Assembly (NCBI GenBank): GCA_044373465.1
Contig: JBILQE010000011.1
Span: forward strand, 7,523 to 71,522
DNA: 64,000 nucleotides
Source: Akkermansiaceae bacterium
Lineage (GTDB): Bacteria > Verrucomicrobiota > Verrucomicrobiia > Verrucomicrobiales > Akkermansiaceae
Direction: 5' to 3'
Part shown: one piece after another, positions 8,654 through 29,166 of the stretch
Layout of the letters: each line of letters begins with the position of its first letter
Position numbering within the stretch: position 1 is the stretch's first letter
The notes under the pieces: model-generated
The model's database searches: none
The model's input: the letters and a program-made list of their open reading frames with translations, nothing else
What the model was told of the DNA's origin: nothing
Program-made: the position numbers and the translations under genes

Positions 8654-8785
8654 AGGCTAGGCGACAGAGGGTTGCCGGTTGGCGGCCAGGTGCAGCATGC
8701 CGACGAACTTCGCATAGATCCGTGGACCAAACAAGTCGAGAGCCATCGGCGTGACCGGTGGCAGTTGGTGGCCATTGCTCAATTC

Positions 8786-9889: not shown

Positions 9890-11249
9890 GCACCCTTAAC
9901 GCGTGAAGAATTCTCAGGGCGTCGTAGCGGAGAGCCAGAAGGTCGCGGGGAAGTTCCGCCAGCGATTGCCCCAGGATTCGGCAACTGGCCGGCAGGACGA
10001 ACACAGCCATGAGCACCTCCATGGCCAGAAGCCCCGCAAGCGCACCGGCGACGCCCCAGGAGCCGACCAGGGCGGCGCTGATGGCCACCCCGAGGAGCGC
10101 GCAGGCGACCCCGGCAACGGCATAACGCTCAGGCTGGTTGACCGCGCGAAAGGTGGCCGCCGCCGGCCACCACACCGCGTTGGCGGCGATCCCGGCGAGC
10201 AGCAACAGCCAGGAGTTGGCGGGTGGGTGGAGCATGTCGGCGGTCCACTTCGCATAGATCCATGGGCCAAACAAGCCGAGACCGACAATCCCGCCGGTGG
10301 CCAGCAGCGCGCTGAGTCCCAGCGCGAGCCGGAAGAGGCGCCGGGCACTGGCCATCGCGTGTTCAGCCACGGCGCGCTGGAGTTCGGGAAAGATCGTCGC
10401 TTGGACGGAATTGTACATTTGCGCGATGCTGTTGGCGACGGTCCGCAGGGTGGCGAGGATGGCGACAGCCTCCGCACCAAGGGCGATGCGGGTGACCAGC
10501 AGGGTGCCTTGCAGGTAGATCGAGCGGCGCACCGGCTCCATCAGGAACGCCAGACCCTTGCGGAAAAACAAGCGGACGTCGGCGCGCTCGATTGGCTGCC
10601 CCGCGGGGACCACCGCCGGCAGCAGCCGTCGGCCAGTCAGATAAAGCCCTGCGGCGGACACGCTGGAGATCGCAAGGTCAGCGGTGGCCAGCCAGAGCAT
10701 CCCCTTGCCGGTCATCAGCAAGCCGATGAAAGTCCCGATCTGCAGCAGCGCAAACCCCGCCTCCCACGCAATCGCCAGATGGGCTCTGCCAGCCGCGCGA
10801 AACCACCCGTCGTTGAGCTGGTTGTGGAAACTCACCAAACCCGAGGCGGCAAGCACCCCGACGACCGCCAGCGCAGTCGGTGTGTGGACGTCGGTTGCTG
10901 CCAGCGCGCCGGTCATCCAGAGCGCCGTGAGCAGCACCGCGCTGGCTGCCACACCGAGAACCATCACCAGCAACAACAACGCTTGCCCGGCCCGCATCGC
11001 GCGCGCCGCGCCCGCAAGGTCGCCGCCGAGGTAGCGCAGGACAAAGGTGTTGGCCGCCGCCGATCCGAGCCCGAGGTTGCAGAACGCCAAACTTGCGGGA
11101 ATGGCCGAAAGCGTCAGCCACTCGCCGTAGGCCGCCGCTCCCCAACTCATCAGGAAGAACGGCACAAGCACCAAATGCTGGACCGCCAGCACCCCCTTGT
11201 GGAAGAGCACGGCGCTGCCGTTGAGGACGAGGTTGCGTTTGGTCGACAT
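9861..11249 (-). CDS. wzx: Polysaccharide flippase, MOP/Wzx-like
   Basis: 462 aa with about 12-14 TM segments. N-terminus: MSTKRNLVLNGSAVLFHKGVLAVQHLVLVPFFLMSWGAAAYGEWLTLSAIP. The call rests on topology plus locus context. Confidence 0.65.
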   Translation of the reverse strand: MSTKRNLVLNGSAVLFHKGVLAVQHLVLVPFFLMSWGAAAYGEWLTLSAIPASLAFCNLGLGSAAANTFVLRYLGGDLAGAARAMRAGQALLLLVMVLGVAASAVLLTALWMTGALAATDVHTPTALAVVGVLAASGLVSFHNQLNDGWFRAAGRAHLAIAWEAGFALLQIGTFIGLLMTGKGMLWLATADLAISSVSAAGLYLTGRRLLPAVVPAGQPIERADVRLFFRKGLAFLMEPVRRSIYLQGTLLVTRIALGAEAVAILATLRTVANSIAQMYNSVQATIFPELQRAVAEHAMASARRLFRLALGLSALLATGGIVGLGLFGPWIYAKWTADMLHPPANSWLLLLAGIAANAVWWPAAATFRAVNQPERYAVAGVACALLGVAISAALVGSWGVAGALAGLLAMEVLMAVFVLPASCRILGQSLAELPRDLLALRYDALRILHALRVHAKPATDGH

Positions 11250-11257
11250 GACGCGCG

Positions 11258-12712
11258 CTAGCGACCTTCATAATGGGCCGGCGAGATCTCCTCGTTGCTG
11301 GCGTCCTCGGCCGTCGGCACCGCCGGTTTTTCCGCTGGGCGCTTCGAGCGGCGGCGCAAGGTGCGCCGGAGTTGGGCGAAGATTTCCTGGCGCAGCGCAA
11401 ACACGTCCGCTGGGAGGCGGGCAAGCGGCTGGCCGATGATCTTGCAGGTGGCCGGCAAGACGAAGGCTCCCATCAAGGTCTCCATGACGAGCAGTCCAAG
11501 CAACACCCCGTTGACTCCCATGGGTCCGACAAGGATCGCACTCAGCCCCACGCCGATGCAGGCGGTGAGAATCCCAACAACCCCCGAGGCTTCCGGACGA
11601 TTGACCGCCCGGAACGTGCATCCTGCTGCGCACCAGACGGTCGGAACAAACGCGCCGAGCAGCAGGAAGACCCACGCGTATTGGGGCGGATCAAGCTTTC
11701 CGGTCGTCCATGCATGGTACACATGCGGGCCGAACAAGCTAATCGCCGCACATCCGGCGAGCCCCACGAATATCGACAACCCGGTGCCAAACCGATAAAT
11801 CCGTCGCGCGTCTTCATCCCGCGAGGTGGCGATGGCGTGCTGCAGCTCAGGGAAAATCGTCGCGTTGATCCCCAGCGATGCTTGAGCGAGCGTATTGCCG
11901 ATCGTCCGGAGGGTCGCAATGAGGACCACCGCCTCGGGCCCGAGGGCGATCCGGGTCACAAAGATCATTCCTTGAGCGTGGATGGCTTGGCGCGCTGGAC
12001 TCATGAGGAACGCCAGCCCCTTTTTCAGGAATACGATCAATTCCGCCTTTTCGATTCGTGCGGCCGCTAGATCGATCTCAGGGAGCAATTTGCCGCCCCG
12101 GTGATGGAGCCATCCCACACCAACGATGGCTGAGGCCAGGTTCAAGGAGGCAATCCAGATCATTCCCCCACCTGCAAGCAGTGTCAGAACCGTCAGCCCC
12201 GTGGCGACCAGCGCCGCGACCGAGCCATAATGCGTCGACTCATGGTTGCGGCGCGCCGCGCGGAACCATGCCTCGTTGAGGGAACTGAAAAATCCCACTA
12301 CTGTCGCTAACGCCAGCAGACAGATCACCGCTACCGAGGTGGCCGGTGGTTGCGCGAACTCTGTGAGCAAGCCGCTTGCCGAGGCGATTCCCAACGCGAT
12401 CCCGCCAAGCAGCATGCCGACGCCCACAGCCACGAATACCAATAGCATGCCGCTGCGCATCGCACGCGCGGCACCAGCCAGATCGCCCTTGCCGTAGGCG
12501 AGGACGAACGCGTTGCCGGCGGCCGTTCCCAGGCCGAAGTTGCAAAACGAAATCGAGACCGGAATCGCCGAGAGGGTGATCCATTCACCATAGTGCTCAA
12601 GCCCCCACGAGTGGATGAAGAACGGCACGACGACGAGGTGCCGGGCGGCGATGACCGCCTTCTGAAGCACGGTGGCGGCGCCATTGAGAAGCAAGTGGCG
12701 TATGATTGACAT
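11258..12712 (-). CDS. wzx: Polysaccharide flippase, MOP/Wzx-like (tandem paralog)
   Basis: 484 aa. The N-terminus MSIIRHLLLNGAATVLQKAVIAARHLVVVPFFIHSWGLEHYGEWITLSAIP is colinear with the downstream gene. It also shares ...FLKKGLAFLMSPARQAIHAQGMIFVTRIALGPEAV... versus ...FFRKGLAFLMEPVRRSIYLQGTLLVTRIALGAEAV... Confidence 0.65.
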   Translation of the reverse strand: MSIIRHLLLNGAATVLQKAVIAARHLVVVPFFIHSWGLEHYGEWITLSAIPVSISFCNFGLGTAAGNAFVLAYGKGDLAGAARAMRSGMLLVFVAVGVGMLLGGIALGIASASGLLTEFAQPPATSVAVICLLALATVVGFFSSLNEAWFRAARRNHESTHYGSVAALVATGLTVLTLLAGGGMIWIASLNLASAIVGVGWLHHRGGKLLPEIDLAAARIEKAELIVFLKKGLAFLMSPARQAIHAQGMIFVTRIALGPEAVVLIATLRTIGNTLAQASLGINATIFPELQHAIATSRDEDARRIYRFGTGLSIFVGLAGCAAISLFGPHVYHAWTTGKLDPPQYAWVFLLLGAFVPTVWCAAGCTFRAVNRPEASGVVGILTACIGVGLSAILVGPMGVNGVLLGLLVMETLMGAFVLPATCKIIGQPLARLPADVFALRQEIFAQLRRTLRRRSKRPAEKPAVPTAEDASNEEISPAHYEGR

Positions 12713-12734
12713 TCGGGAATGGCCTTTTCAAGGG

Positions 12735-13703
12735 TTAGCGGCGCACGCGCAAACGGCGTTTGGCGCGGCTGAGGAGGTCGCGCCCATGGTCAAGTGAGCG
12801 ACGCAGGAGGCGCGGCACGGTGGCGAGCGGCCCGTGGTTGAGGAAGTGCGGGATGACCTTGGTGTCGAAGAGCTCGAGCCAATTTTGGGCGAGCGCCTCG
12901 GCGGTGAACGCGCGCGCCTTGGCGGCGCCATTTTCCACAATCCGCGCGTAGACTTCCGGGTCGTCAAGCAGCGCGAGGGCCTCCTCGAACTCCGCGGTCG
13001 TCTGGACCCGCAGGTAGTCCTCGCCTGGCGTGCCGATCTTGGAAAATGCCGAGTCGTAGCCGCCGATGAGCGGGACGCGCGCGTGCCACGCGTTGATCAA
13101 CTTGCTCGGCGGCTTGTCCGGATAGGTCTGGTTGGAAAAGCTGCGGATCCCGACGACCGCGTCGACGTTGGCCATGTTGTGCCATTGCTCCTTGGCGATG
13201 TGGAGGAAGTCGACGGTGCGCCCGTGCAGCGGGAAGTGCGGGCGGTTGAGGAACCCGTCAAGGTTGCGCGCGCCCGGGCGACCGGCGTAGGCGATGCACG
13301 CGAGCCCACGGCGGCCGGGATCCCGCGGGATGATCCCCGGCACCGGCCAATAACAAACGTATCCCTGGGTGGCCGTGCGCACCGCCTCGGGGTTCTGCAG
13401 GATCTCGAAATCCACGTCGAACACCCGCGTGTAGTCCGCCCGCATCGACACCCGGTACTCGCCAATCCGCGCACCCAGCTCGTGCCACGCCGTGACGTGC
13501 GCAATGTTGATCGCCCCGGGTTGCGCCGCGGTCCCGATCGATATCCCGTCACGCCAACCGCGCAGCTGCAAATACGTCTGGACCGGCCAGTTCACCGGCC
13601 CGCCGAGCCAATACGGGAAGTCGACGCCGAGCCGCTTGGCGCACAACTCGGCCAGCTCGCCCGGCGTCAAGCGGTTGACGACAAAATGGATCTTCGGGTG
13701 CAT
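12735..13703 (-). CDS. Hypothetical protein; only the C-terminal half looks like a GT-B glycosyltransferase
   Basis: 322 aa. The C-terminal block ...KPPSKLINAWHARVPLIGGYDSAF...GEDYLRVQTTAEFEEALALLDDPEVYARIVENG... resembles the nucleotide-sugar-binding half of GT1/GT4 enzymes. The N-terminal half is unrecognised. Confidence 0.45.
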   Translation of the reverse strand: MHPKIHFVVNRLTPGELAELCAKRLGVDFPYWLGGPVNWPVQTYLQLRGWRDGISIGTAAQPGAINIAHVTAWHELGARIGEYRVSMRADYTRVFDVDFEILQNPEAVRTATQGYVCYWPVPGIIPRDPGRRGLACIAYAGRPGARNLDGFLNRPHFPLHGRTVDFLHIAKEQWHNMANVDAVVGIRSFSNQTYPDKPPSKLINAWHARVPLIGGYDSAFSKIGTPGEDYLRVQTTAEFEEALALLDDPEVYARIVENGAAKARAFTAEALAQNWLELFDTKVIPHFLNHGPLATVPRLLRRSLDHGRDLLSRAKRRLRVRR

Positions 13704-18373: not shown

Positions 18374-19411
18374 TCACGCGCGGCGGTGGCTGAGCAGAGC
18401 GAGGAGCAGGCTGCGCGGCGGGATGAGGAGGATGACGGCCTGGTAGCGGAGCATCTCGAGCAGCCGGGCGGGACTGCGCCACGGATGCCGGAACGTCCCG
18501 GTGAGTGCCCGGAGGAATTCCCGGAGGTATTTTTTGCTCTGGGGAAAGTCGCCTACGCTCAGCGAGCTCGATAGCGCCCGCCAGGATGCGAAGGCGAGCC
18601 CGAGGCTGGCTTCCAGGACGGCGTCCGGGTGGATACTGTGCATGATCGCGCGGGTCGTCTTGACGAGTTCAGCGCGCCGGCCGTCGGCCGAGCGGGCGGA
18701 CCAAACGCCGCCGGGATGCTGGCGGTAGGCGCCCATGGACCCGCCGACCTGGTGCATTTCCCCGTGGCGCGACATCATCGCAAACAGAAACAAGTCGCCG
18801 GTGACCAGCGGTTCGGGCGGCAGGGGAATTGGCAGGTTGCGAAACACAATCGAGAGCGTCGGGATGAACGCCCGGCGGATCTGCGGGAAGCACTTCAGCT
18901 CGCGGGCCTGGTTGATCCGCCCGTAGGCGAGCATCTGCGATGGCGCCAACACCACCTTGTTCGCGTCAACACCGGCCACATCATGGAATGTCAGCGCCAC
19001 CTCGGGGTGCTTGCGCAGGTAGCCGACCTGCAACTCAAGCTTGCCCGGGTCTGTCCAGTAGTCGTCACCCTCGCAGGCGGCAAGGAACTCGCCGCGGGCC
19101 ATGGCGCGCAGTTGGGGGGCAATGCGGATCCCCTGGGAATACTGGTTGGTCTCCTGCAGGACGGCCCGAATGACGTCCGGATGTCTCGCTTGATACTCGC
19201 GGATGATCTCGGCGGTTGCGTCGGTCGACGCGTCGTCATGGATGATAATCTCAACGGGAAAGCTCGTCTCCTGCATCAGGAACCCTTCGATGGCGTCCCG
19301 AATGAACCCTGCGTGGTTGTACGTCGCGCAGCAGATGCTCAGCGTCGGCACCGTGCCCGCCGGCCAAGCCTGCGCGCGCACGGGCAGCGGATCGGGGGCG
19401 GCGCTCATCAT
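18374..19411 (-). CDS. Glycosyltransferase family 2
   Basis: LSICCATYNHAGFIRDAIEGFLMQETSFPVEIIIHDDASTD is a classic GT2 N-terminal Rossmann block with the DxD region. 345 aa; 4-nt overlap with the downstream GNAT gene. Confidence 0.85.
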   Translation of the reverse strand: MMSAAPDPLPVRAQAWPAGTVPTLSICCATYNHAGFIRDAIEGFLMQETSFPVEIIIHDDASTDATAEIIREYQARHPDVIRAVLQETNQYSQGIRIAPQLRAMARGEFLAACEGDDYWTDPGKLELQVGYLRKHPEVALTFHDVAGVDANKVVLAPSQMLAYGRINQARELKCFPQIRRAFIPTLSIVFRNLPIPLPPEPLVTGDLFLFAMMSRHGEMHQVGGSMGAYRQHPGGVWSARSADGRRAELVKTTRAIMHSIHPDAVLEASLGLAFASWRALSSSLSVGDFPQSKKYLREFLRALTGTFRHPWRSPARLLEMLRYQAVILLIPPRSLLLALLSHRRA

Positions 19412-19998
19412 TCTTCCGGGTCGACAACCTTCAGATAGGGCTCAAAGGCGCCGCGCTGGGCGTCAAACTCGCAGCGCAGCACGCTCATGACGATCACGTC
19501 GTGGAACTTCCCATGCGCAAAAATCTCACTGCGCAACACCCCGTCGCGGGTTGCGCCGAGCCGCTTCGCAATCCTCAGCGGCAGGGGGTTGTCTTTCCGG
19601 ATCTTGGTGTAAATCTTGTTGAGGTTCAGCGCTTGGTGGAGGTGGTCAAGCGCCACGACAACGGCTTCAAAACCGTGGCTAAGTCCCGCGGGCTCACCTA
19701 TGCCGATGTAAACTTCCGCCTTGGCGTTGGGCACATCAATATCGCGGAAGCCAACGTAGCCGACTGGCTGGCAATTTTCTTGAGTGTGGATGATCAGATC
19801 CAGCCGGGTCGGGTCATTGGCGAGCTTTTCGGTCCACAGACGGGTGGATTCCTCGGAGATCGCTGCGGGCAGGTTGAGCTTCCGCCCGATCTCCTCGGAG
19901 TTCATCCAGCGGGTGCGGATGGCGACAAACTCCTCGGCCATCGGGACCAGGAAAATGTGCCTTCCCTCGATGAAATTCGTTCCTGGACTGAGCATCAT
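19408..19998 (-). CDS. GNAT family N-acetyltransferase (RimJ/RimL-like)
   Basis: 196 aa. ...VGYVGFRDID..AEVYIGIGEPAGLSHGFEAVVVALDHLHQALNLNKIYTKIRKDNPLPLRIAKRLG... is a GNAT fold pattern. Confidence 0.75.
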   Translation of the reverse strand: MMLSPGTNFIEGRHIFLVPMAEEFVAIRTRWMNSEEIGRKLNLPAAISEESTRLWTEKLANDPTRLDLIIHTQENCQPVGYVGFRDIDVPNAKAEVYIGIGEPAGLSHGFEAVVVALDHLHQALNLNKIYTKIRKDNPLPLRIAKRLGATRDGVLRSEIFAHGKFHDVIVMSVLRCEFDAQRGAFEPYLKVVDPEE

Positions 19999-19999
19999 T

Positions 20000-21205
20000 T
20001 CAATCGGCTTCCGTCGCCGGCACTCGCTCGACTGACTGCGGGCGACTCAAGCAAAGATCGGCAAAGTGGGCAATCCTCTCGCAGACACGGACAACATCCT
20101 CGGTGCTCACCGCGGTGCCGGTTGGCAGCACCAGCACTTGCTGGCAGAGCTTGTCAGTCGCCGGCAGCGTGGGAGCCGTCGCCTGGCGTGAGACATACGG
20201 TTCCATCCGGTGGCAGCCGGGGAAGAAATACCGGCGGACAAAGATATCCTCCGCATGCAGCGCCGCCATCAGCTCGTCGCGGTTGAAGCCCGCTTCCGCG
20301 GCGTCAATCTCGAGGATCACGTACTGCTGGTTGCTCTCGCCAATCCCCTCGTAGGCATAAACTCTCACGCCGGCCAAGGCGCCCAGCCGGCTCTGGTAGT
20401 GGCTGAAATTCCGCCGGTTGGCTGCCGTGATGGCATCCAAGCCGGCAAAGCACGCCAGCCCCATGGCGGCGTGGATCTCGGACATTTTCGCGTTGGTCCC
20501 AAGGTCCTCGACGCAGTCAAACCCGCTGAAGCCAAAGTTGATCATCAGCCGGATCCGCGCCGCGAGCGCATCGTCGTTGGTCGCGATCGCCCCGCCTTCC
20601 GCGGTGTTGAAAAACTTCGTCGCGTGAAAACTGAACACCTCGCAGCGGCCAAAATTGCCGATCATCTTCCCCCCGTGGCGACAGCCAAACGCATGCGCCG
20701 CATCAAAATACAGCTCCAACCCGTGGCGCTGCGCAATTTCCTCGAGCCGCTCCGGATGGCACCCGCGGCCCCACGTGTGGACCCCGAGAATCGCGCTCGT
20801 CCGTGGCCCGATCAGGCGCTCGACCGCCTCCGGATCCAGTAGATGAGTCACCGGATCAATCTCGCAAAATACCGGCTCCACACCCTGCCAGCGCACCGAG
20901 TGCGCCGTGGCCACAAACGTGAAGGCCGGCATGATCACCTCCCCGGTTAGCTCCAGCGCCTGGCATACCACCTGCAATCCCAGCGTCGCATTGGCCACCG
21001 GAATGCAGTGGCGCACCCCGAGGTACCCGCACAGTTCCGCCTCGAGTTGTTGGACCAACGGCCCGTTGTTGGTTAGCCAGCGCCGCGCAAACATCCCGTC
21101 AACCAGCGCATCAAACACCGCACGCTCACCCAGGTTCGGCCGCCCAACAAATAGCGGGCTTCCGCGCTCAGGCACTGGCGCAACTGGCTTGATCACTTGA
21201 CTCAT
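20000..21205 (-). CDS. DegT/DnrJ/EryC1/StrS-family PLP-dependent sugar aminotransferase
   Basis: FSFHATKFFNTAEGGAI is the PLP-lysine block, with family-typical blocks throughout. The ORF extends to a GTG at 21265 (GTGA overlap with the upstream stop). I prefer the ATG at 21205 because 21228-21252 is a copy of a short hairpin repeat that is otherwise intergenic. Confidence 0.85.
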   Translation of the reverse strand: MSQVIKPVAPVPERGSPLFVGRPNLGERAVFDALVDGMFARRWLTNNGPLVQQLEAELCGYLGVRHCIPVANATLGLQVVCQALELTGEVIMPAFTFVATAHSVRWQGVEPVFCEIDPVTHLLDPEAVERLIGPRTSAILGVHTWGRGCHPERLEEIAQRHGLELYFDAAHAFGCRHGGKMIGNFGRCEVFSFHATKFFNTAEGGAIATNDDALAARIRLMINFGFSGFDCVEDLGTNAKMSEIHAAMGLACFAGLDAITAANRRNFSHYQSRLGALAGVRVYAYEGIGESNQQYVILEIDAAEAGFNRDELMAALHAEDIFVRRYFFPGCHRMEPYVSRQATAPTLPATDKLCQQVLVLPTGTAVSTEDVVRVCERIAHFADLCLSRPQSVERVPATEAD

Positions 21206-21261
21206 TGGACGCGTTCGATCTTGGGCTGGCCGAGCTGGGGCTCGGCGTTCCGTTCCGTCTG

Positions 21262-22221
21262 TCACCCCAGCCGGAGGACGATGTCTTTGTAGCCGCTAAC
21301 TCCGATGGCCGGCTGCAGCCACTCTGGGGCGACGGGTTCTCCGCGCGCCCAGGCGACGAGTGCGGCGGGCACGTTGGCGCCGGCCAGATGTTGGAATGGA
21401 TAGTCGCCGGTGAAGCGCGGGTTGATATCGAGAACGTAACAAACGTCGTTGGACACGATCATATCGATCCCCCAGATGCCCGCATGGTTGGTTAGCCCGG
21501 CGAGCTTGGCGGCAAGCGCGGCGAACTGCTGCGGGTCGACGGTGGTGGCGCGGTCCGACTCGCCGGCGCGCATTGAATCAACCCTGCAGGCAAAGGTCGC
21601 CCTTGGAACCCCGGCGAGATCGTTGACCAGGTTGAGCCGGAATTCGGTACCGACGACAAATTCCTGGAAAATCCGCGGCGCCTCGGCCGCTCGATCTGCC
21701 GCCCCCCAGCACTCAAGCTCCTGCCTGCTCCGGCAGACCCGCAGCCCACCTGAGCCAAACCCGCTGCGCTCCTTGATGACGATTGGCAAGCGGATCTCCC
21801 CGGAGTCAAGCGCGGCTAGCGTCTCGCTCAGCGATGGACTCGTCCACGGGCTGCTTATCCCGTGGCTGCGCAAAAATTGCTGGCACTCTAACTTGTCGAG
21901 GCAGCGTTGCGCCCAGCGCGCGTCCGGCAGGGTGCTCGCGGCGCGGGCAAACCCGCCGCCGAACTGCGCGAGCACCGTGGTGTCCAGGTCATGGAGCGAG
22001 CAGAGCAGGCCGATCTCATGGGTCGCGCAGATCTGCGCGATGCTTTCCGCGTATCCCGCGCTCGCCACCGGCGCGACCACCAAGGCCACGTCGGCCACCT
22101 GCATTCCGGCCGCCTGCGCATGGCTGTTAGTGACCACCACCTGGCCGGTCCCGCCGAGCGCCTGGCGAAAGTAGTCAACCAGATAGGCGCGGCGTCCGAC
22201 GCATGTTAGCAACACGTTCAT
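21262..22221 (-). CDS. ATP-grasp domain enzyme (carboxylate-amine ligase type)
   Basis: 319 aa. MNVLLTCVGRRAYLVDYF... is a pre-ATP-grasp region, then ...LPIVIKERSGFGSGGLRV...FQEFVVGTEF...WGIDMIVSNDVCYVLDINPRFTG, an ATP-grasp pattern. Confidence 0.75.
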   Translation of the reverse strand: MNVLLTCVGRRAYLVDYFRQALGGTGQVVVTNSHAQAAGMQVADVALVVAPVASAGYAESIAQICATHEIGLLCSLHDLDTTVLAQFGGGFARAASTLPDARWAQRCLDKLECQQFLRSHGISSPWTSPSLSETLAALDSGEIRLPIVIKERSGFGSGGLRVCRSRQELECWGAADRAAEAPRIFQEFVVGTEFRLNLVNDLAGVPRATFACRVDSMRAGESDRATTVDPQQFAALAAKLAGLTNHAGIWGIDMIVSNDVCYVLDINPRFTGDYPFQHLAGANVPAALVAWARGEPVAPEWLQPAIGVSGYKDIVLRLG

Positions 22222-22241
22222 TCGCGGTCGGAGGAAGAAGG

Positions 22242-22382
22242 ATTGACCGCGGAGAAGCGGAGGCAGCGGAGAGACGCGGAGGACAGCCGGAATAAGGAAT
22301 CAGCGCATCAGGCACTGGTGCTCATTTTGAAGCTAATCTTAAGATTCTTCTCCGCGTCCCTCCGCTTCTCCGTTTCTCCGTG
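22242..22382. repeat. REP-B element copy A (CGGAGAAGCGGAGG hairpin family)
   Basis: Arms 22248-22285 (cggagaagcggaggcagcggagagacgcggagga) and 22347-22380 (cttctccgcgtccctccgcttctccg...) are mutually complementary. 22242-22286 is the exact reverse complement of 23330-23374. Confidence 0.85.
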
Positions 22383-22402
22383 GTAAGTACCATCATCGCC
22401 CA

Positions 22403-23125
22403 TTAGACCGGCGACTCCCTCGGAAGTTCCAGTTGGCCGGCGAGCACGTGGGACCGCGCTTCGGCCCGGGACGCGCGCATGATGAGGTCGAGGATCGAGA
22501 GGCTGGGGATGAACTCGGCGCTGGCCTGCGGATAGGGACGCAGGACGGGATCGACAAACCTCAATGTTAGTCCGTTCTGCGCAAATTCCGCATGCCTATA
22601 CAGGTGGCGCCCGCCGCCGGAGTTGACATAGGTGGTTGCCCGTTCCTGGCGGCAGATATCAAACAACCGGGCGGTCCCGCGGAGGTGGGCGTTGGCGTAG
22701 CCGGTCGAGGTTTCCACAATCTCGACCGGGAGCCGGAGCCAGCGGCAGATTTCGCGGATGCTCCGCGCGTTGATCGCCGAGATCGGCGCGTCCGGGTCGC
22801 TGAGCCACTCGCCCAACATCGGGAAGATCTCCGCGAAGTTGCGCGCATCGTGGTACCCGTGGGTCACTGTCTTGAGAAACCTCCGCCGCCACGCCCGGAA
22901 CCCGTCCGCCGGGCGAAACTCGTGGATCCTCGCGGTGTGCGGGTGGCGTCGCAGCGGAATCGAAAACTCGTGGCGCTCCCCGCCCATCAGGACCGTGTTG
23001 CTCGCGATCCACCCGCCTTTGATGAACTGCACATCGTCGGCCAAGACCATCTTGTCCACCGCCGCGAGCAACTGGAAATACCCCAGATACGGGAGGAAAT
23101 ACGGCTGCATGATCCCGAGGCGCAT
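22403..23125 (-). CDS. WbqC-like family protein
   Basis: ORF 22403..23215 trimmed to the ATG at 23125. MRLGIMQPYFLPYLGYFQLLAAVDKMVLADDVQFIKGGWI.N... is the characteristic WbqC-family N-terminus as I recall it. Confidence 0.75.
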   Translation of the reverse strand: MRLGIMQPYFLPYLGYFQLLAAVDKMVLADDVQFIKGGWIASNTVLMGGERHEFSIPLRRHPHTARIHEFRPADGFRAWRRRFLKTVTHGYHDARNFAEIFPMLGEWLSDPDAPISAINARSIREICRWLRLPVEIVETSTGYANAHLRGTARLFDICRQERATTYVNSGGGRHLYRHAEFAQNGLTLRFVDPVLRPYPQASAEFIPSLSILDLIMRASRAEARSHVLAGQLELPRESPV

Positions 23126-23129
23126 TGCC

Positions 23130-23482
23130 GAGGAGGGAGTCGAAGGTCGGGGGGCGGCCGGTAGGGCGATGCGTCTCCGCAGCGCCCGCGCATGAAGCCG
23201 CCGATGCTTATGCAATGAACGGACGGCAGACTTCCCATGGGCATCCCATCCTCACCCCATGCGCCGGGCGTCGGGACCCACCGAGAAGCGGAGAAAAATC
23301 CAGGTTTCGCTTTAGAATGAGAACAAGCGCTGTCCTCCGCGTCTCTCCGCTGCCTCCGCTTCTCCGCGGTCAATCCGTCAGGTCGAAGGGATCATTGAGG
23401 AGGCTTCGCGCGCGAGCAATGGCGGTTCATTCGTGGGCGCTGCGGAGACGCATCGCCCTACCGGGCCTTCGACTCCTCCCTC
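23130..23482. mobile_element. 353-bp inverted-repeat-bounded, MITE-like intergenic element (no ORF)
   Basis: The left arm 23130-23187 (gaggagggagtcgaaggtcggggggcggccggtagggcgatgcgtctccgcagcgccc) is the imperfect reverse complement of the right arm 23435-23482. The interior contains REP-B copy B (about 23281-23374). It fills the whole wbqC/LbH intergenic gap. Confidence 0.45.
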
Positions 23483-24152
23483 ACTCGCCAATCTCGCGAA
23501 TGACCTTGCACGGGTTGCCGAAGGCGAGCACCCCCGGGGGAATGTCGCGGGTCACGACGCTGCCGCCGCCGATGATGCTGTTGGCGCCGATTTTGATGTT
23601 GTCGAAAACCACCGCGCCGATGCCGAGTTGGACCGCCTCGCCGAGGTCGCACTGGCCGGCGACATGGGCGCCCGGGTTGACCGAGACGAAGCGTCCGAGG
23701 CGCGTGTGGTGGCCGATGGTGCACCCGCGGTTAAGGGTGACGCCGAAGCCGATCTCGGCAAACGCCGAGACGACCACCCCGGGTTCGAAATAACTTCCGC
23801 GTCCGACCCGCGCACTCGAGGCAATGAACGAGTGCGGCGACACCAGCGTCCCAAAGTCATCCTCGCCCAACGGCTGCGCCGCCGCAAAAAGCTCCAGCAC
23901 CGTCCGCTTCCCGCCCGGCTTCGCCAGCGCAAACCCAAGCCGGTCGCCCCCGCGGGCAAACGTCCAGTCCGCCAGCGCGACCCGCTCGTACCTAACTGCC
24001 GGATGGGCGAACGCCACCTCGTCGCGCGCCGGGATGTTCTCGATGATCCTAACAGGCCCGGCGGCTTTGTTGGCCGCGAGGGTCTCAAAGATCAGAGCCA
24101 GAATGTTCCCGCTGAACCCCAGGAACACGTTCGGTGTTGTAGTATCCTCCAT
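23481..24152 (-). CDS. NeuD/PglD-type hexapeptide (LbH) sugar N-acyltransferase
   Basis: The N-terminal Rossmann-like ...NVFLGFSGNILALIFETL is followed by LbH repeats ...IGHHTRLGRFVSVNPGAHVAGQCDLGEAVQLGIGAVVFDNIKIGANSIIGGGSVVTRDIPPGVLAFGNPCKVI. ATG at 24150-24152 (a TTG at 24158 is also possible). Confidence 0.8.
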   Translation of the reverse strand: MEDTTTPNVFLGFSGNILALIFETLAANKAAGPVRIIENIPARDEVAFAHPAVRYERVALADWTFARGGDRLGFALAKPGGKRTVLELFAAAQPLGEDDFGTLVSPHSFIASSARVGRGSYFEPGVVVSAFAEIGFGVTLNRGCTIGHHTRLGRFVSVNPGAHVAGQCDLGEAVQLGIGAVVFDNIKIGANSIIGGGSVVTRDIPPGVLAFGNPCKVIREIGE

Positions 24153-24954
24153 TGCCAAATTCCTTTGCGGTTAGAAGCGGCCGCTCGTGGAGCTTGCGCA
24201 GCTGGTGGACCCGCTCCAACAGCGCGAGGTTGGTGGCGAGGCGGGTCCGGCGGGCGTCCAACCAGAGGTTGTCCTCGAGGCCGACGCGGACGCCGAGGCC
24301 GAGGGCGACGGCGACGCTGTTGACCCGCCACTGGAACCGGCCGATGCCGCCGAGGGCGACGGTTGCGCCGGCGGGGAGCGCCTGGGTGAGCGCGGCGATT
24401 TCCTGGACGTTGGCCTGGGCGCCGGCAACGTTGCCAAAGATCAGGTTCCAGTAGCTGGGGCCGGTGAGGATCCCCTTGCCGAGCAGATATTTCCCGTAGT
24501 TGACCATCCCCAGGTCAAAGCACTCGAGCTCAGGGTGGACGCCAAACGCGCGCATCTTTGCGGCGAGCGTCTGGATCGTCTGCGGCGCGTTGAGCGACGC
24601 CTGGGTGGGAAAATTCAGCGACCCGAGCGTCAGCGAGCACATGTCCGGGCGCAGCTCGATGACCGCGCCGCGCCGCTCGACGTCCTGGACATCGCGCCCC
24701 GACGTGCTCGCGCAGATGACCAGCTCCGGGCAATGGCGCCGGACGCCGGCAAAGATCTCGGCATAGACATCCGGTTTCCAGGTCGGCGCGCCGGCGGCGT
24801 CGCGCGCGTGAAGGTGGGCGATGGTGATCCCGAGCTCATTGGCCTGGTGGACCTGTTCGATGATCTCCTGCGGATGGACCGGCACATGCGCCGACTCATC
24901 TTTCCCGGGGACCATCCCGGTCGGACAAAAGTTGATGAGCAGCGGGGGATTCAT
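24085..24954 (-). CDS. BKACE family enzyme (3-keto-5-aminohexanoate cleavage enzyme-like, DUF849)
   Basis: ORF 24085..25143 trimmed to the ATG at 24954. MNPPLLINFCPTGMVPGK...HVPVHPQEIIEQVHQANELGITIAHLHARD...PELECFDLGM...GVRVGLEDNLWL... is colinear with the BKACE family, including the HxH and GLEDN blocks. The 3' end overlaps the next gene by 68 nt. Confidence 0.85.
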   Translation of the reverse strand: MNPPLLINFCPTGMVPGKDESAHVPVHPQEIIEQVHQANELGITIAHLHARDAAGAPTWKPDVYAEIFAGVRRHCPELVICASTSGRDVQDVERRGAVIELRPDMCSLTLGSLNFPTQASLNAPQTIQTLAAKMRAFGVHPELECFDLGMVNYGKYLLGKGILTGPSYWNLIFGNVAGAQANVQEIAALTQALPAGATVALGGIGRFQWRVNSVAVALGLGVRVGLEDNLWLDARRTRLATNLALLERVHQLRKLHERPLLTAKEFGNGGYYNTERVPGVQREHSGSDL

Positions 24955-25025
24955 GGGGAAAAGTGAGCAGTGAGCAGACCGGTCTGATGAAGCAGTGGGA
25001 AGTGGGTAGATCCGATCAATCAAAA

Positions 25026-25889
25026 TCACTCCAACAACCGGAGCAGGTAGCCGGCGTAGGTCGTCTCGCCGAGGTCGGCGGCGGCGGCGCGCAGGTCCTC
25101 TGCGCTGAGCCAGCCGTTGCGCCAGGCGATCTCCTCGAGGCACGCGACCTTGAACCCCTGGTGGTGCTCGATGGTCCGGACAAACTGCGAGGCCTCCAAC
25201 AGCGAGTCCGGCGTTCCGGTATCCAGCCAGGTGTGGCCGCGGCCGAGAATCTCGACATGGAGGTCGCCGCGCTCGAGGTAGGCGCGGTTGACGCAGGTGA
25301 TTTCCAGTTCGCCGCGTGGCGACGGTTTGACCGCCTTGGCGATCTCGACCACGTCGCGGTCATAGAAATACAACCCGGTGACGGCCAGGTCCGACTGCGG
25401 GTGGGCCGGCTTTTCCTCGATCGACAGCGCGGTGCCGTTAGAATCGCAGGCGACGACCCCGAAGCGCTGCGGGTCGTGGACCTGGTAGCCGAAGATCGTC
25501 GCGCCGCGCGCGCGCGCCGCCGCCGCCTGGAGCTTTGGCGAGAACCCCTGGCCGTAAAAAATGTTGTCCCCGAGGATCAGCGCGCAGCGGCCGCCGGCGA
25601 TGAATTCCTCACCTAGCAGAAACGCCTGCGCCAGCCCGTCGGGCCGCGGCTGGGCCACATAACTCAGGGATATCCCGAAGCGCCCGCCATCGCCTAGCAG
25701 CCGCTGATAGAGCGGCAGGTCCTCCGGGGTCGAGACGAGCAGGATCTCGCGGATGCCGGCAAGCATCAGCACCGAGAGCGGATAGAAGACCATCGGCTTG
25801 TCATAGACCGGCAGCAGCTGCTTGCTCACCGCAAGCGTGCTCGGGTAGAGCCGCTTGCCGGATCCGCCGGCGAGGATGATGGCTTTCAT
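25026..25889 (-). CDS. rfbA: Glucose-1-phosphate thymidylyltransferase
   Basis: ORF trimmed to the ATG at 25889. [55 protein letters not shown]... is a textbook RfbA/RmlA sequence. Confidence 0.92.
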
Positions 25890-25892
25890 GGG

Positions 25893-26027
25893 CGTAGCGA
25901 ACTTCTTGCGTAGCGAACTTTGTGAAAAGTTCGGCGGGGAGAACTGCCTGCCGCCAGAACGCCCGAACGCGCTAAGGACTTCCAACCTTCCCCCGCCGCA
26001 GCTACAAAACGCGACGAACCTCGCTAC
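25893..26027 (+). repeat. REP-A element copy d
   Basis: cGTAGCGAACTTcttgcGTAGCGAACTTTGTGAAAAGTTCGGCGGGGagaactgCCTGCCGCCAGAACGCCCGaacgcgctaaGGACTTCC...gaacctCGCTACg. It fills the rfbB-rfbA gap and overlaps the rfbB stop codon. Confidence 0.9.
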
Positions 26028-27067
26028 GCAACGCCGCCGCGGCGGGCCAGCGCCGGAGTGGCGGCGATGAGCGGCTGCCACCAGCCAGGATTGTCCAAGT
26101 ACCAGGCGACGGTCTGGCGGATGGCGGCATGCGGGTCGCGGGTCGGCTGCCAGCCGAGGTCACGGCGGATTTTCGCCGGGTTGATCGCGTAGCGGTGGTC
26201 GTGGCCCGGGCGGTCGGCGACCAGGCGGATTTGTTGGGCGTACCCCTGGCCGTCTGGGCGCGGGCGGAGTTCGTCGAGGATCGCGCAGAGGTGATTGACG
26301 AGGTCGATATTCCGCCACTCGTTGTTGCCTCCGATCGCGTAGGTCTCTCCCGGGGTCCCGCGCTCGGCGACGGCCAACAGCGCCGCGGCGTGGTCACCGA
26401 CAAACAACCAGTCGCGGACGTTCTCGCCGGTCCCGTAGACCGGCAGCTGCTCGCCGCCGAGCGCCTTGAGAATCGTTAGCGGAATGAGTTTCTCGGGGAA
26501 CTGGTACGGGCCAAAGTTGTTAGAGCAGTGGGTGACGACCACCGGGATGCCGAACGTCGTGTGCCAGGCGCGGGCGAGGTGGTCGGACGCCGCCTTGCTG
26601 GCCGAGTATGGCGAGTGCGGCTGATAGGGGCTGTGTTCATCGAACGCGCCGGTCGGCCCGAGCGAGCCGAAGACCTCGTCGGTGGAAACGTGGACAAAGC
26701 GGAACCCGGGGTCCGGCTGGGATGTTAGAAATGTCCGGGTAGCTTCCAACAACGTGAACGAGCCGACGATGTTGGCCTGGATGAAGGCGGCCGGGCCGTC
26801 GATGGAGCGGTCGACATGCGACTCGGCGGCGAGGTGGATGAGCCGCTGCGGGCGGAAGCCCGCGAAGGCCGAGTGGACGGCCTGGGCGTCGGCGATGTCG
26901 GCGTGGCGGAACTGATAGGCCGGGTGGTTTTCGAGGTCGGCGAGCGACGCGCGGTTGCCGGCGTAGGTGAGTTTGTCGACGTTGAGGACCTGGTGGCCGT
27001 GGGCGACGAGGAGCCTGACGAGGTTGGAGCCGATGAATCCGGAGCCGCCGGTGACGAGGATGCGCAT
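26024..27067 (-). CDS. rfbB: dTDP-glucose 4,6-dehydratase
   Basis: [20 protein letters not shown]...DKLTYAGN...[11 protein letters not shown] (YxxxK)...; colinear with RfbB/RmlB. 347 aa. Confidence 0.92.
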
Positions 27068-27072
27068 GGAGG

Positions 27073-27105
27073 AGTCGAAGGTCGGAAAGTCGAAGGTCGA
27101 AAGTC
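27073..27105. repeat. Tandem repeat (AGTCGAAGGTCGRA, 14-bp period built from two heptamers) in the rfbB 5' leader
   Basis: Read directly: agtcgaaggtcgga aagtcgaaggtcga aagtc, beginning 6 nt upstream of the rfbB ATG (27067). A related ggagtcgaaggtttcgg...gggtcgggtc lies at 27213-27243. Confidence 0.8.
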
Positions 27106-27243
27106 AATTCAAGGAGCGGCGATCTCCGAATCGCCGAGCCGATGAGATGCCGATGAAATGCGGGCACCTTCCCCCATCGACACTCCATGGTCCTGGCTGA
27201 GCTGCGGGGTGAGGAGTCGAAGGTTTCGGGGCCGGGGGTCGGG

Positions 27244-29166
27244 TCAGCGGGCCGGCGTGGCAAGCAGGGCGAGAAACGCCGGGACCAGCCGGAGGCTGCC
27301 GCGGACGCTGAGATGGTTGGAATCCCGGAAAAACACCCCGTCGCTGTCGGCCACCTGGACGAGTCCGGAGGAATCGCAGAGGGCGGGAAGCGGGTCGAGG
27401 AAGTCGAGCCCGGCAGTGCCGGTGAGAGAAGCGAAGATCGTGTCCTGCGGTGTGACGTCGTGGCGGTGCTCGGCGGCGGTGAACGAGACGCCGAGGGCGT
27501 CCCAGCCGAACATTTCCTTGAGGGCGGTGCTTTGCGGGACGTTCTTCGGCAGGCTGGGGACCTCGCGGAGAATCGTGACCTGGCAGCCGCAGGCGCGGAG
27601 GTCGTCGATGGTGCGCTTGAGTGCGGCGGCGAAGCGCCCGTCGGCGTCCGCCTGGGTGTAGGCGCGCCAGCGGGCGACGAGGATGACCCGCTCGATCGGC
27701 GCAGTTGCCGCGGCGGCGCGGATGTGGTCGAGGACCGCCTGGTTATACGCCGGGGCGCGCTCGCTCAGGCCGAAGTGGTGGACGAAATACCAGCCGAGGA
27801 CCGGGGCGGTGGCGGAGGCGGTTGCCGCCTCGGCGCGGATGCCGGCTTGCTTGCAGGCGGCGTCGATGGCTGGGAGGACTGCCATCGCGTGGCTGTCGCC
27901 CCAAACGAAGATGCGCCGGGTGGCGGCGGGATCGCCGACGGTGGTGAGGTTCTGCGGGATGTCCTCGCGGCGCATCAGCCGGTCATACGGGTTGGCCGCC
28001 GCCCCGCCGGCAAACATGAGCGCCTCGGCCGACAACCGCTGCGGGAACCCGCCGGACCCCCAAACGGTCGTCGCCTGCAGCGCCAGCGCCACCCCGGCGA
28101 GCGCCGCCAGCGCAAATGTCCGGCGCGGCGATTGACCGCTGCGCCGGCCGCGAAACGGCCGCTCGACAAACCGTAACGACAGCCAAGCAAACCCGAGCGC
28201 CACCACCACCAGCGCGCCGCTCAGCGCGTGCGAGTCGAGCCCGAGGCCAAGATAGCGGCGCAGCGCCAACAGCGGCCAGTGCCAGAGGTAGAGCGAGTAG
28301 GAAAGCAACCCGAGAGCCACCAGCGGCGCCCACCCGAGGAGCCGGTGGGCGCTCGAGCGCGGCGACCCACCCGCATCCGGGATGCCGCTCCAGATGAGCA
28401 AGACGGCGCCAAGCACCGGCGGCAGCGCTGCGAGCCCGGGAAACCGCGTGTCCTGTGAATACCACCCGGCGGCCACCGCGATCGCCGCCAACCCGGACCA
28501 CCCCATCACCTCGCGCAGCCCGCGCCGCGCAACCGGCCCGGCAAACGCCAGCAGCCCGCCGGCCGCCAGTTCCCACGCCCGCGTCGGCAGCAGGAAGAAG
28601 CTCGCCTTCGGAATCCGTGGAACCAGGATGATCGCCAGCGCCAAGCTCGCGACCACCCCGAGCGCCAGCAGCGGCGCGCACCAACCGGCCCGCCGGATCC
28701 GGAACAAGCCGATGAGCAGCAGCGGGATGAATAGGTAAAACTGTTCCTCGAGCGAGAGCGACCAGGTGTGGAGCAGCGGTTGCTGTTCGGCGGCCGCGCC
28801 AAAATACCCGGTCTCGCGCCAAAACCACAGGTTCGCCGAAAATCCCAGCAGCGCCAATACCTGCTTCCCGAGGTCCTCCAAGTGCTCCGGCAGCAGCACG
28901 ATGCTCCCGACGACGAGCACCGTGGCGACCATCACCGTCAGCGCCGGCAAGATCCTCCGCGCCCGGCGTTCCCAAAAGTCCCACAAGGAAAAGGTTCCTG
29001 ACCGCAAGTCTTTGATGATCAGACTTGTAATCAGGAACCCGGAAATCGCGAAAAACACATCCACCCCGACATAGCCGCCCGTCACGCCCAGCCCGGCGTG
29101 GAAGAGGACCACGCTGAGGATGGCTACCGCACGCAGGCCGTCGATGTCGCGCCGGTAGGTGAGCAT
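27244..29166 (-). CDS. AT3-SGNH fused O-acyltransferase (OafA/YrhL-like)
   Basis: ORF trimmed to the ATG at 29166. MLTYRRDIDGLRAVAILSVVLFHAG is an AT3 N-terminus, followed by about 10 TM segments and a C-terminal SGNH-like domain (IFVWGDSHAMA ... FRDSNHLS). Confidence 0.85.
   Translation of the reverse strand: MLTYRRDIDGLRAVAILSVVLFHAGLGVTGGYVGVDVFFAISGFLITSLIIKDLRSGTFSLWDFWERRARRILPALTVMVATVLVVGSIVLLPEHLEDLGKQVLALLGFSANLWFWRETGYFGAAAEQQPLLHTWSLSLEEQFYLFIPLLLIGLFRIRRAGWCAPLLALGVVASLALAIILVPRIPKASFFLLPTRAWELAAGGLLAFAGPVARRGLREVMGWSGLAAIAVAAGWYSQDTRFPGLAALPPVLGAVLLIWSGIPDAGGSPRSSAHRLLGWAPLVALGLLSYSLYLWHWPLLALRRYLGLGLDSHALSGALVVVALGFAWLSLRFVERPFRGRRSGQSPRRTFALAALAGVALALQATTVWGSGGFPQRLSAEALMFAGGAAANPYDRLMRREDIPQNLTTVGDPAATRRIFVWGDSHAMAVLPAIDAACKQAGIRAEAATASATAPVLGWYFVHHFGLSERAPAYNQAVLDHIRAAAATAPIERVILVARWRAYTQADADGRFAAALKRTIDDLRACGCQVTILREVPSLPKNVPQSTALKEMFGWDALGVSFTAAEHRHDVTPQDTIFASLTGTAGLDFLDPLPALCDSSGLVQVADSDGVFFRDSNHLSVRGSLRLVPAFLALLATPAR

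Follow-up and report, generated by a model that had tools for sequence, protein, structure and literature searches.

A conserved BKACE–acyltransferase gene module in bacterial glycan loci and its long coding overlap in an Akkermansiaceae bacterium

In a 64,000-nucleotide stretch of the genome of an Akkermansiaceae bacterium (contig JBILQE010000011.1, hereafter the window), a gene for a BKACE-family (DUF849) enzyme overlaps the gene that follows it, which encodes a left-handed beta-helix (LbH) sugar acyltransferase. We found that the two genes belong to a conserved module of glycan loci, frequently with a GT2 glycosyltransferase as third member, and that the length of the overlap is a by-product. 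No description of this module was found in the searchable literature, and our search returned no paper linking BKACE/DUF849 to polysaccharide, O-antigen or other glycan loci. BKACEs are known almost only from lysine fermentation and from the breakdown of carnitine, deoxyribonate and phloroglucinol. The gene pair of the window consists of the following features.

24085–24954, minus strand: BKACE-family gene, 289 aa, with ATG at 24954 and TGA stop at 24087–24085
23481–24152, minus strand: LbH sugar acyltransferase gene, 223 aa, VioB/PerB/PglB-like (Pfam Hexapep), with ATG at 24152
24085–24152, minus strand: 68-nt overlap that codes both for the end of the BKACE and for the beginning of the LbH protein, with the LbH frame +1 relative to the BKACE frame

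The BKACE gene and its LbH partner form a conserved module

Among 185,579 species, each represented by one genome, a pattern scan recovered 467 stretches encoding relatives of the window BKACE. Taxonomy was taken from the best 80 of these, which are mostly Bacteroidota (Cyclobacteriaceae, Flavobacteriaceae, Chitinophagaceae, Saprospiraceae and Marinifilaceae) but include Balneolaceae and one Sericytochromatia genome, and gene context was read in 81 loci. An LbH homologue accompanies the BKACE gene in 72 of the 81 loci. It is the next gene downstream (+1) in 55 and occupies the +2 position in 11, ten of these with a GT2 gene in between. As a third partner, a 305-aa GT2 glycosyltransferase is frequent (44 loci) and usually located at +1 or +2. 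Besides these partners, the commonest families among 148 neighbours in 30 diverse loci were DegT proteins, UDP-sugar dehydrogenases, Wzt-type ABC transporters, ATP-grasp proteins, epimerases/dehydratases and glycosyltransferases (GT1/GT2/GT4).

A glycan locus with an LbH partner is therefore the normal context of this BKACE subfamily, and the preliminary description of the window, which had regarded the enzyme as out of its usual context, has to be corrected on this point. It had rightly placed the gene in a glycan locus; RmlA, RmlB, the LbH protein and a DesI-like aminotransferase are encoded alongside. The tight co-expression that it proposed is supported by the direct adjacency in 55 loci, most often through a 4-nt ATGA overlap.

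As characterised BKACEs are all catabolic except BsfD (bioRxiv 10.1101/205583; PMC11961710), the window protein could be an ordinary lysine, carnitine or 3-oxoadipate enzyme that lies here by chance and has no link to glycans. The presence of LbH genes beside or near the BKACE gene across several phyla makes this very improbable, as does the fact that the window genome encodes this single BKACE with no catabolic partner genes alongside. Moreover, the protein falls below all equivalog cut-offs (see below).

This BKACE subfamily was not found in 39 other relatives of the window genome that we searched, ranging from the same genus to the same order, one of which has a 40%-identical BKACE. In phylogenetic trees the window BKACE and LbH sequences both group with Chitinophagaceae sequences, and the partners are the same in the two trees. 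This grouping and the patchy distribution fit a module carried along by variable glycan cassettes. No sign of a recent transfer was seen in base composition, with a GC content of 0.65 at the pair versus 0.59–0.68 across the window.

Several loci deviate from the common arrangement. In L010 the BKACE gene stands alone. In a Chitinophagaceae metagenome-assembled genome (MAG; L082, 3919–5468), a GNAT acetyltransferase gene rather than an LbH gene lies 8 nt 3' of the BKACE gene, and the surroundings (M1 peptidase, amino-acid kinase) are not an obvious glycan locus. Algoriphagus and relatives (L007, L024, L027, L041, L044, L047, L049 and L050, about 8700–13500) carry a compact cassette of BKACE, GT2, LbH and PylC-like ATP-grasp genes. 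Unrelated genes flank it (GMC oxidoreductase, GDSL lipase, ABC transporter), and neither an aminotransferase nor Wzx/Wzy is encoded close by. A divergent "sugar-transfer associated" ATP-grasp gene is found directly upstream in six loci, among them L049. In a Saprospirales MAG (L003, 10785–11442) the LbH sequence 3' of the BKACE gene matches in two pieces (10824–11120 and 11125–11442), which may be due to a frameshift, a pseudogene or an assembly error.

The window enzyme belongs to an uncharacterised BKACE subfamily

The 289-aa product is a genuine BKACE-fold protein, as the preliminary description had recognized from its motifs, all of which were found. Its match to Pfam PF05853 (E=2e-74; 250.8 bits, gathering cut-off 24.8) covers profile positions 1–267 of 274, and its sequence matches in the protein data bank are 3no5, 3fa5, 3chv and Kce (2y7d). 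An AlphaFold2 model built from a 121-sequence alignment has a mean predicted local distance difference test score (pLDDT) of 93.2 and a predicted TM-score (pTM) of 0.91, and displays the BKACE fold. Foldseek aligned it with 3no5, 3fa5, 3chv and Kce over approximately 271–276 columns with target-normalised TM-scores of 0.91–0.93, and gave root mean square deviations (rmsd) of 1.4–1.9 for 3no5, 3chv and 2y7e.

Kce shares the TIM-barrel fold of the window enzyme (query-normalised TM-score 0.86–0.88, rmsd 1.5–1.7), and the two agree in the zinc-binding H-x-H and Glu, in the catalytic Glu and in the Arg. Residues H47, H49 and E227 (zinc ligands), E144 (catalytic), R223 and D228 of the window enzyme align with their Kce counterparts and are invariant in 121 subfamily sequences. 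The roles of the corresponding catalytic residues have been described for Kce E143 (PdKce E171) and for the arginine R226 (R254) (PMC11961710). Identity to Kce is nevertheless only 28%, and the two proteins differ at the C-terminus, where the window enzyme has FGxxGFYN, as well as in context, which is glycan biosynthesis for the window enzyme and lysine fermentation for Kce. By our own alignment count, Kce Glu14, which we take to bind the substrate amino group, aligns with Val15 of the window enzyme. The position of Kce Tyr145 (PdKce Tyr173) is taken throughout the subfamily by a Phe, which is Phe146 in the window motif PELECFDLG. According to the alignment, the canonical Tyr presumed to contact the CoA sulfur is thus absent from the window BKACE.

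The enzyme scores below every NCBIfam BKACE equivalog cut-off, namely those for 3-oxoadipate:acetyl-CoA acetyltransferase (203 vs 350 bits), Kce (201 vs 382) and the 3,5-dioxohexanoate enzyme (128 vs 430). Closest among these models is NF053568, the canonical 3-oxoadipate:acetyl-CoA acetyltransferase. The closest solved relatives are Reut_A1631 (3no5), PDEN_3495 (3fa5) and SPOA0042 (3chv), with E=1e-47 to 1e-44 and 35–37% identity. Together with NF053568 they have in common with the window enzyme a Phe at the Tyr145 position and the STxGR motif, whereas the window subfamily differs in its invariant or conserved cysteines, in NFCPTGM and FGxxGFYN, and in gene neighbourhood. The signatures NFCPTGM, PDMCSLTL, PELECFD and FGxxG(F/Y)YN mark the subfamily. 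From its sequence, the window protein is assigned to an uncharacterised BKACE subfamily of the zinc-dependent TIM-barrel type.

Of the subfamily cysteines, C81 is invariant and C10, C106 and C145 are kept in at least 90% of the 121 sequences. All four adjoin catalytic motifs at beta-strand ends, where other BKACEs show Ala, Ile or Gln. They might be part of the substrate pocket wall or coordinate a second metal.

Homology to the solved structures stops near residue 265. Beyond this point comes the FGxxG(F/Y)YN motif, whose G267, G270, Y272 and N273 do not vary among 15 sequences and reach at least 90% conservation among 121. The AlphaFold2 model places a final helix at residues 263–271 with high pLDDT. 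The mean pLDDT is 79 for residues 271–280 and drops below 50 for 280–289. In relatives the tail after YN usually comprises 2–5 mostly basic residues, for example RKK. The preliminary description had asked whether the C-terminus is part of the fold, and the answer is divided: residues through N273 belong to the fold and are under selection, while 274–289 form an extra tail. These 16 residues are variable, unconstrained and predicted to be disordered.

The gene pair may make and transfer an unusual acyl group

The BKACE and LbH genes lie within an operon-like series on the minus strand in the order rmlB, rmlA, BKACE, LbH, wbqC-like, ATP-grasp, DesI-like aminotransferase and GNAT. The neighbouring genes are listed here from 5' to 3' of the pair.

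26024–27067, minus strand: rmlB (dTDP-glucose 4,6-dehydratase; Pfam GDP_Man_Dehyd and Epimerase)
25026–25889, minus strand: rmlA (glucose-1-phosphate thymidylyltransferase; Pfam NTP_transferase, E=1.6e-70), directly 5' of the BKACE gene
22403–23122, minus strand: WbqC-like gene (Pfam PF08889, E=5e-58)
21262–22221, minus strand: PylC-like ATP-grasp ligase (Pfam ATP-grasp_3 and PylC-like_N)
20000–21265, minus strand: DegT-family aminotransferase (PF01041, E=2.6e-100), closest model DesI, dTDP-4-dehydro-6-deoxyglucose 4-aminotransferase (TIGR04427, 466 bits, below the 650 cut-off)
19408–19998, minus strand: GNAT acetyltransferase, weakly PseH-like (TIGR03585, E=1e-9), with a homologue in the same place in L001

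The order from rmlA to GNAT is identical in L001, a locus whose BKACE is 74% identical to that of the window.

The LbH protein matches TIGR03570 (NeuD/PglB/VioB) with E=3e-37 and 128.1 bits, below the cut-off of 160.8, and only its residues 83–216 are covered. Its best matches in the protein data bank are PerB (4ea7), PglB (4m98) and VioB (7txp), over the beta-helix part. These three are 4-amino-sugar N-acetyltransferases. Compared with VioB/PerB/PglD-type enzymes (7txp, 4ea7, 3bss), the window protein matches the C-terminal beta-helix at residues 100–217 with E about 1e-17 and is alike in overall size and in its position in a 4-amino-sugar pathway. It differs in its N-terminal ~80 residues, which do not match the TIGR03570 profile, and in its systematic partnership with a BKACE.

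RmlA and RmlB yield dTDP-4-keto-6-deoxyglucose, from which DesI-type aminotransferases form dTDP-4-amino-4,6-dideoxyglucose, and VioB/PerB-type LbH enzymes N-acylate the 4-amino group. The gene set of the window is thus predicted to make and decorate dTDP-4-amino-4,6-dideoxyglucose, a viosamine-type sugar.

In the family reaction a beta-keto acid and acetyl-CoA are converted to acetoacetate and an acyl-CoA two carbons shorter (PMC11961710; bioRxiv 10.1101/205583; 10.64898/2026.01.15.699783). The simplest reading of the BKACE–acyltransferase pairing is that the BKACE makes the acyl-CoA used by the transferase. The window enzyme would carry out this reaction on a beta-keto acid, and the LbH protein would then acylate the 4-amino group of the sugar with the unusual product; where a locus lacks an aminotransferase, a hydroxyl would be the acceptor instead. 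A comparable logic operates in anthrose synthesis in Bacillus, where AntA and AntD represent a dedicated enzyme that makes an unusual acyl-CoA and, beside it, an LbH N-acyltransferase acting on dTDP-4-amino-4,6-dideoxyglucose. The BKACE would be to the LbH protein what AntA is to AntD, by analogy only, as AntA is an enoyl-CoA hydratase without homology to BKACE. We give about an even chance to this proposal in full, i.e. a conserved two-gene module in which the BKACE makes an unusual acyl-CoA and the co-translated LbH enzyme transfers it to a dTDP-4-amino-4,6-dideoxyglucose-type sugar. The GNAT that replaces the LbH protein in L082 fits a supply of the acyl donor by the BKACE, since it is another CoA-dependent acyltransferase. 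So does the enrichment of short-overlap gene pairs among subunits of heteromeric complexes (PMC10666635).

Several points weigh against this proposal. The GNAT substitution is a single case, and none of the neighbours in the 30 diverse loci is a conserved dehydrogenase that would make a beta-keto acid beside the pair. The BKACE stays under all characterised equivalog cut-offs. Some loci with the pair, such as L083, have no aminotransferase within 10 kb, so that the acceptor may differ between loci. Finally, a Phe (Phe146) replaces Kce Tyr145, as in BsfD, whose chemistry differs, and an acyl-CoA product is therefore not guaranteed. We read Phe146 as a warning rather than a refutation, because Phe is likewise found in 3no5, 3fa5 and 3chv, the solved structures nearest to the window enzyme, and the nearest curated model describes a canonical enzyme.

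BsfD (PDB 9ZSC; bioRxiv 10.64898/2026.01.15.699783) is the one documented DUF849 enzyme with a biosynthetic role, and it has no acyltransferase partner. It acts on a phosphonate beta-keto acid in the flavophos natural-product cluster, where it C-acetylates and decarboxylates its substrate instead of forming acyl-CoA (10.64898/2026.01.15.699783). By the same chemistry the window BKACE would C-acetylate a beta-keto acid with loss of CO2 to give a 1,3-diketone, and the LbH enzyme would use ordinary acetyl-CoA, the two proteins acting on successive intermediates. The PELExFDxG motif is common to both enzymes, with Phe146 in PELECFDLG of the window and Phe in PELELFDIG of BsfD against Tyr145 in Kce. 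The flavophos preprint ties the loss of this Tyr to divergent chemistry, although its authors were unable to demonstrate that the exchange of Tyr for Phe is the cause (10.64898/2026.01.15.699783). Against BsfD-type chemistry, BsfD is more distant from the window enzyme (E=4e-35) than 3no5 (E=3e-54), and the closest NCBIfam model catalyzes the canonical reaction. The loop insertion of ~20 residues that carries BsfD Arg91 is not evident either, as the 289-aa BKACE aligns with the 275-aa 3no5 with gaps of one or two residues only. Overall, we consider this chemistry unlikely for the window enzyme.

A further alternative turns the order around: the BKACE would act after the LbH or ATP-grasp enzyme, trimming or remodelling a sugar-linked (amino-)acyl group that they have installed and that ends in a free beta-keto acid. 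The missing neighbour for the formation of a free beta-keto acid would agree with this, as would the ATP-grasp ligases, WbqC-like proteins and extra acetyltransferases that often accompany the pair. These ATP-grasp, WbqC and DegT partners are variable, though, whereas BKACE and LbH form the conserved core. Moreover, the active-site entry channel of BKACEs is reported to be narrow and filled entirely by acetyl-CoA (PMC11961710), which is hard to reconcile with a substrate linked to a nucleotide sugar. We regard trimming as quite unlikely, a little more so than BsfD-type chemistry.

The proposal of acyl-CoA supply extends to the subfamily as a whole, found in approximately 470 species genomes. 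That it is a dedicated biosynthetic enzyme, with the first glycan-biosynthetic role for the family and a new sugar modification, is a tentative idea that we find possible but would not favor. If true, a family known almost only from catabolism would gain a biosynthetic role, and an acyl substituent not known so far would be predicted on the O-antigens or capsules of many Bacteroidota and of some other phyla. Cultured carriers of the module exist, among them the non-pathogenic Algoriphagus aquimarinus DSM 23399, Indibacter alkaliphilus LW1, Marinifilum flexuosum DSM 21950 and Lacibacter cauensis, which makes the prediction directly testable.

The long overlap is genuine

The 68 nt of overlap at 24085–24152 correspond to 22 BKACE codons and part of the 23rd, read in a different frame, and reading of the open reading frames bore out the preliminary description in this respect. 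The following features lie in or next to the overlap.

24161–24165, minus strand: AAGGA motif resembling a Shine-Dalgarno (SD) sequence, 8 nt 5' of the LbH ATG within BKACE codons K264–E265, read from the sequence and of presumed function
24136–24159, minus strand: BKACE residues 266–273 (FGNGGYYN), over LbH codons 1–6, the conserved end of the last helix
24085–24135, minus strand: BKACE residues 274–289 and stop, a tail specific to the lineage and free of constraint, which in the other frame reads as the conserved LbH segment PNVFLGFSGNILALIF
24084–24090, minus strand: CTT TGA G at the BKACE stop, a prfB-like core only, judged incidental

Long overlaps in annotations are often errors, and gene callers are split here between LbH products of 223 and 215 aa. 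The latter begin at an alternative start, GTG at 24128, which still leaves an overlap of 44 nt, so even the shortest credible LbH start does not abolish it. The first conserved LbH strand (NVFLGFSGN) starts within the BKACE gene, 44 nt from its end. Past the BKACE stop, the next in-frame start is the GTG of residue 46, whose use would delete the conserved N-terminus; the view that no downstream start spares this region thus holds.

An assembly indel is equally hard to defend. The cluster of BKACEs at 90% identity comprises seven proteins, drawn from independent JGI, ENA, NCBI and Logan assemblies. Each is 289 aa long and carries one of two tail alleles, ending in ...VPGVQREHSGSDL or ...VPGIQREHSGAGL. 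On the contig of a 94%-identical cluster member, the downstream gene is likewise called as overlapping. The same architecture occurs in more distant relatives: the LbH ATG lies within the BKACE motif FGEHG in L001, giving an overlap of 38 nt, and within FGNYG in L083 (60% identity), giving 71 nt. Across these three lineages the ATG is kept inside the BKACE FGxxG motif; L001 and L083 agree in its exact position, and the ATG of the window lies one codon before it. The alternative GTG of the window is not conserved. This supports 24152 as the LbH start. The mis-predicted end or sequencing error that had been considered at the outset finds no support in these independent assemblies, and we hold it extremely unlikely that an indel or a misplaced LbH start created the overlap.

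Stop loss in the BKACE frame explains the overlap length

Distances were compared in 56 loci with the LbH gene directly 3' of the BKACE gene (the window and 55 fetched loci), and L001 and L083 were read by hand. From BKACE stop to LbH start, 19 loci show −4 nt (ATGA), 17 show −8 to −16, 12 show −20 to −41 and 7 show 0 to +40, while the window stands at −68. Among all of these only L083 exceeds the window, and the overlap is indeed unusually long, as had been claimed. In a survey of 2.66 million gene pairs, −4 nt was the commonest distance and overlaps of 10–60 nt were about 4-fold rarer than the short ones of −4, −1 and −8 (PMC10666635). The survey also found the −8/−11/−14... phase to be favoured among long overlaps (PMC10666635), and all overlaps above 4 nt in our set are in this phase, bar one at −16. 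In the LbH tree, the window falls in a well-supported nine-member clade (97/92) whose other eight loci overlap by 23–32 nt. Overlaps of 20–71 nt were recorded for the clade including the window, in which the LbH gene starts within the BKACE motif FGxxG(F/Y)YN.

Comparison with relatives indicates how the overlap grew. In L001 the BKACE frame ends at a TAG made by the LbH codons GGG-TAT-AGC (G-Y-S). The window has GGG-TTC-AGC-GGG (G-F-S-G) instead, which is free of stops in the BKACE frame. With LGFSG in place of LGYSE in the window LbH protein, the BKACE frame has lost the TAG and TGA at which it terminates in relatives, and it reads on to the TGA that arises from the LbH codons ATC-TTT-GAG. 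Judging from these sequences, a short overlap that couples the genes (most often ATGA) is ancestral, and the overlap length in the window is an evolutionary by-product of stop loss in the BKACE frame, at the extreme end of a continuum and not a functional design. The region is a worked example of how the stops of an upstream frame are lost through the codon choices of the downstream gene while a long dual-coding stretch persists.

Constraint is split between the two frames. The nucleotides that encode the conserved BKACE GYYN give LbH residues 3–6 (DTTT) in the other frame, and those of the conserved LbH NVFLGFSGNILALIF give the BKACE tail RVPGVQREHSGSDL. The conserved part of the BKACE thus lies over unconstrained LbH residues 2–7, and the conserved LbH strand lies over a dispensable BKACE tail. 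When the protein differences between the two tail alleles are mapped onto the window DNA, three nucleotide differences are deduced. All three alter the BKACE tail (V/I, S/A, D/G), while in the LbH frame two are silent and one is a conservative I/V change. The differences therefore mostly spare the LbH frame, in agreement with the partition of constraint.

Translation of the overlapping genes

Reinitiation is local in experiments (PMC10666635). By the criterion of that study, a range from −8 to about +10, 35 of the 56 loci fall between −8 and +4, whereas the window at −68 lies outside. Termination-reinitiation is therefore unlikely at 68 nt. The likeness to coupled overlapping gene pairs (Huber et al. 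2019, 2023) consists in the ATGA overlap of 4 nt, the commonest in the BKACE–LbH family, and in the favoured phase of the long overlaps, but the window exceeds both the demonstrated reinitiation range and the "long" class of the survey, which covers 10–60 nt. The LbH gene is probably initiated on its own AAGGA-N8-ATG site, which ribosomes translating the BKACE gene would keep unfolded.

A programmed +1 frameshift at CUU UGA G (24090–24084), as raised in the preliminary description, would instead produce a BKACE–LbH fusion. The CUU-UGA core is that of the prfB site, a +1 slip from CUU to UUU lands in the LbH frame, and L083 has CUU UGA A at the equivalent place. The motif is nevertheless imposed by the conserved LbH I/L-F-E codons, and there is no SD-like stimulator 3 nt upstream (GGCTCTGAT). 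The fusion would also miss LbH residues 1–22 including the first conserved strand. In most relatives the genes overlap by 4–14 nt and in 7 they are separated by a small gap; with the BKACE stop at or before the LbH start in these loci, a slip could give no useful fusion. Fused BKACE–LbH reading frames were found neither in the 81 loci (longest 332 aa) nor among 120 listed homologues (267–319 aa). With stop positions in relatives that cannot support it, a frameshift is hardly credible.

Repeat elements and signals around the operon

A promoter and terminator scan of 19000–27600 gave nothing above chance, with 0 promoter-like sites and 6 terminator-like sites against 6.8 expected. The wbqC-like gene is flanked by a 51-nt inverted pair (22237–22287 and 23329–23379) of 98% complementarity. 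The gap between the LbH stop and the start of the wbqC-like gene is occupied by a unit of ~353 bp (23130–23482) bounded by inverted repeats with arm pairs of 22 and 39 nt. In L001 the same gap is only 5 nt, and the unit in the window therefore looks like a small repeat element that was inserted into the operon.

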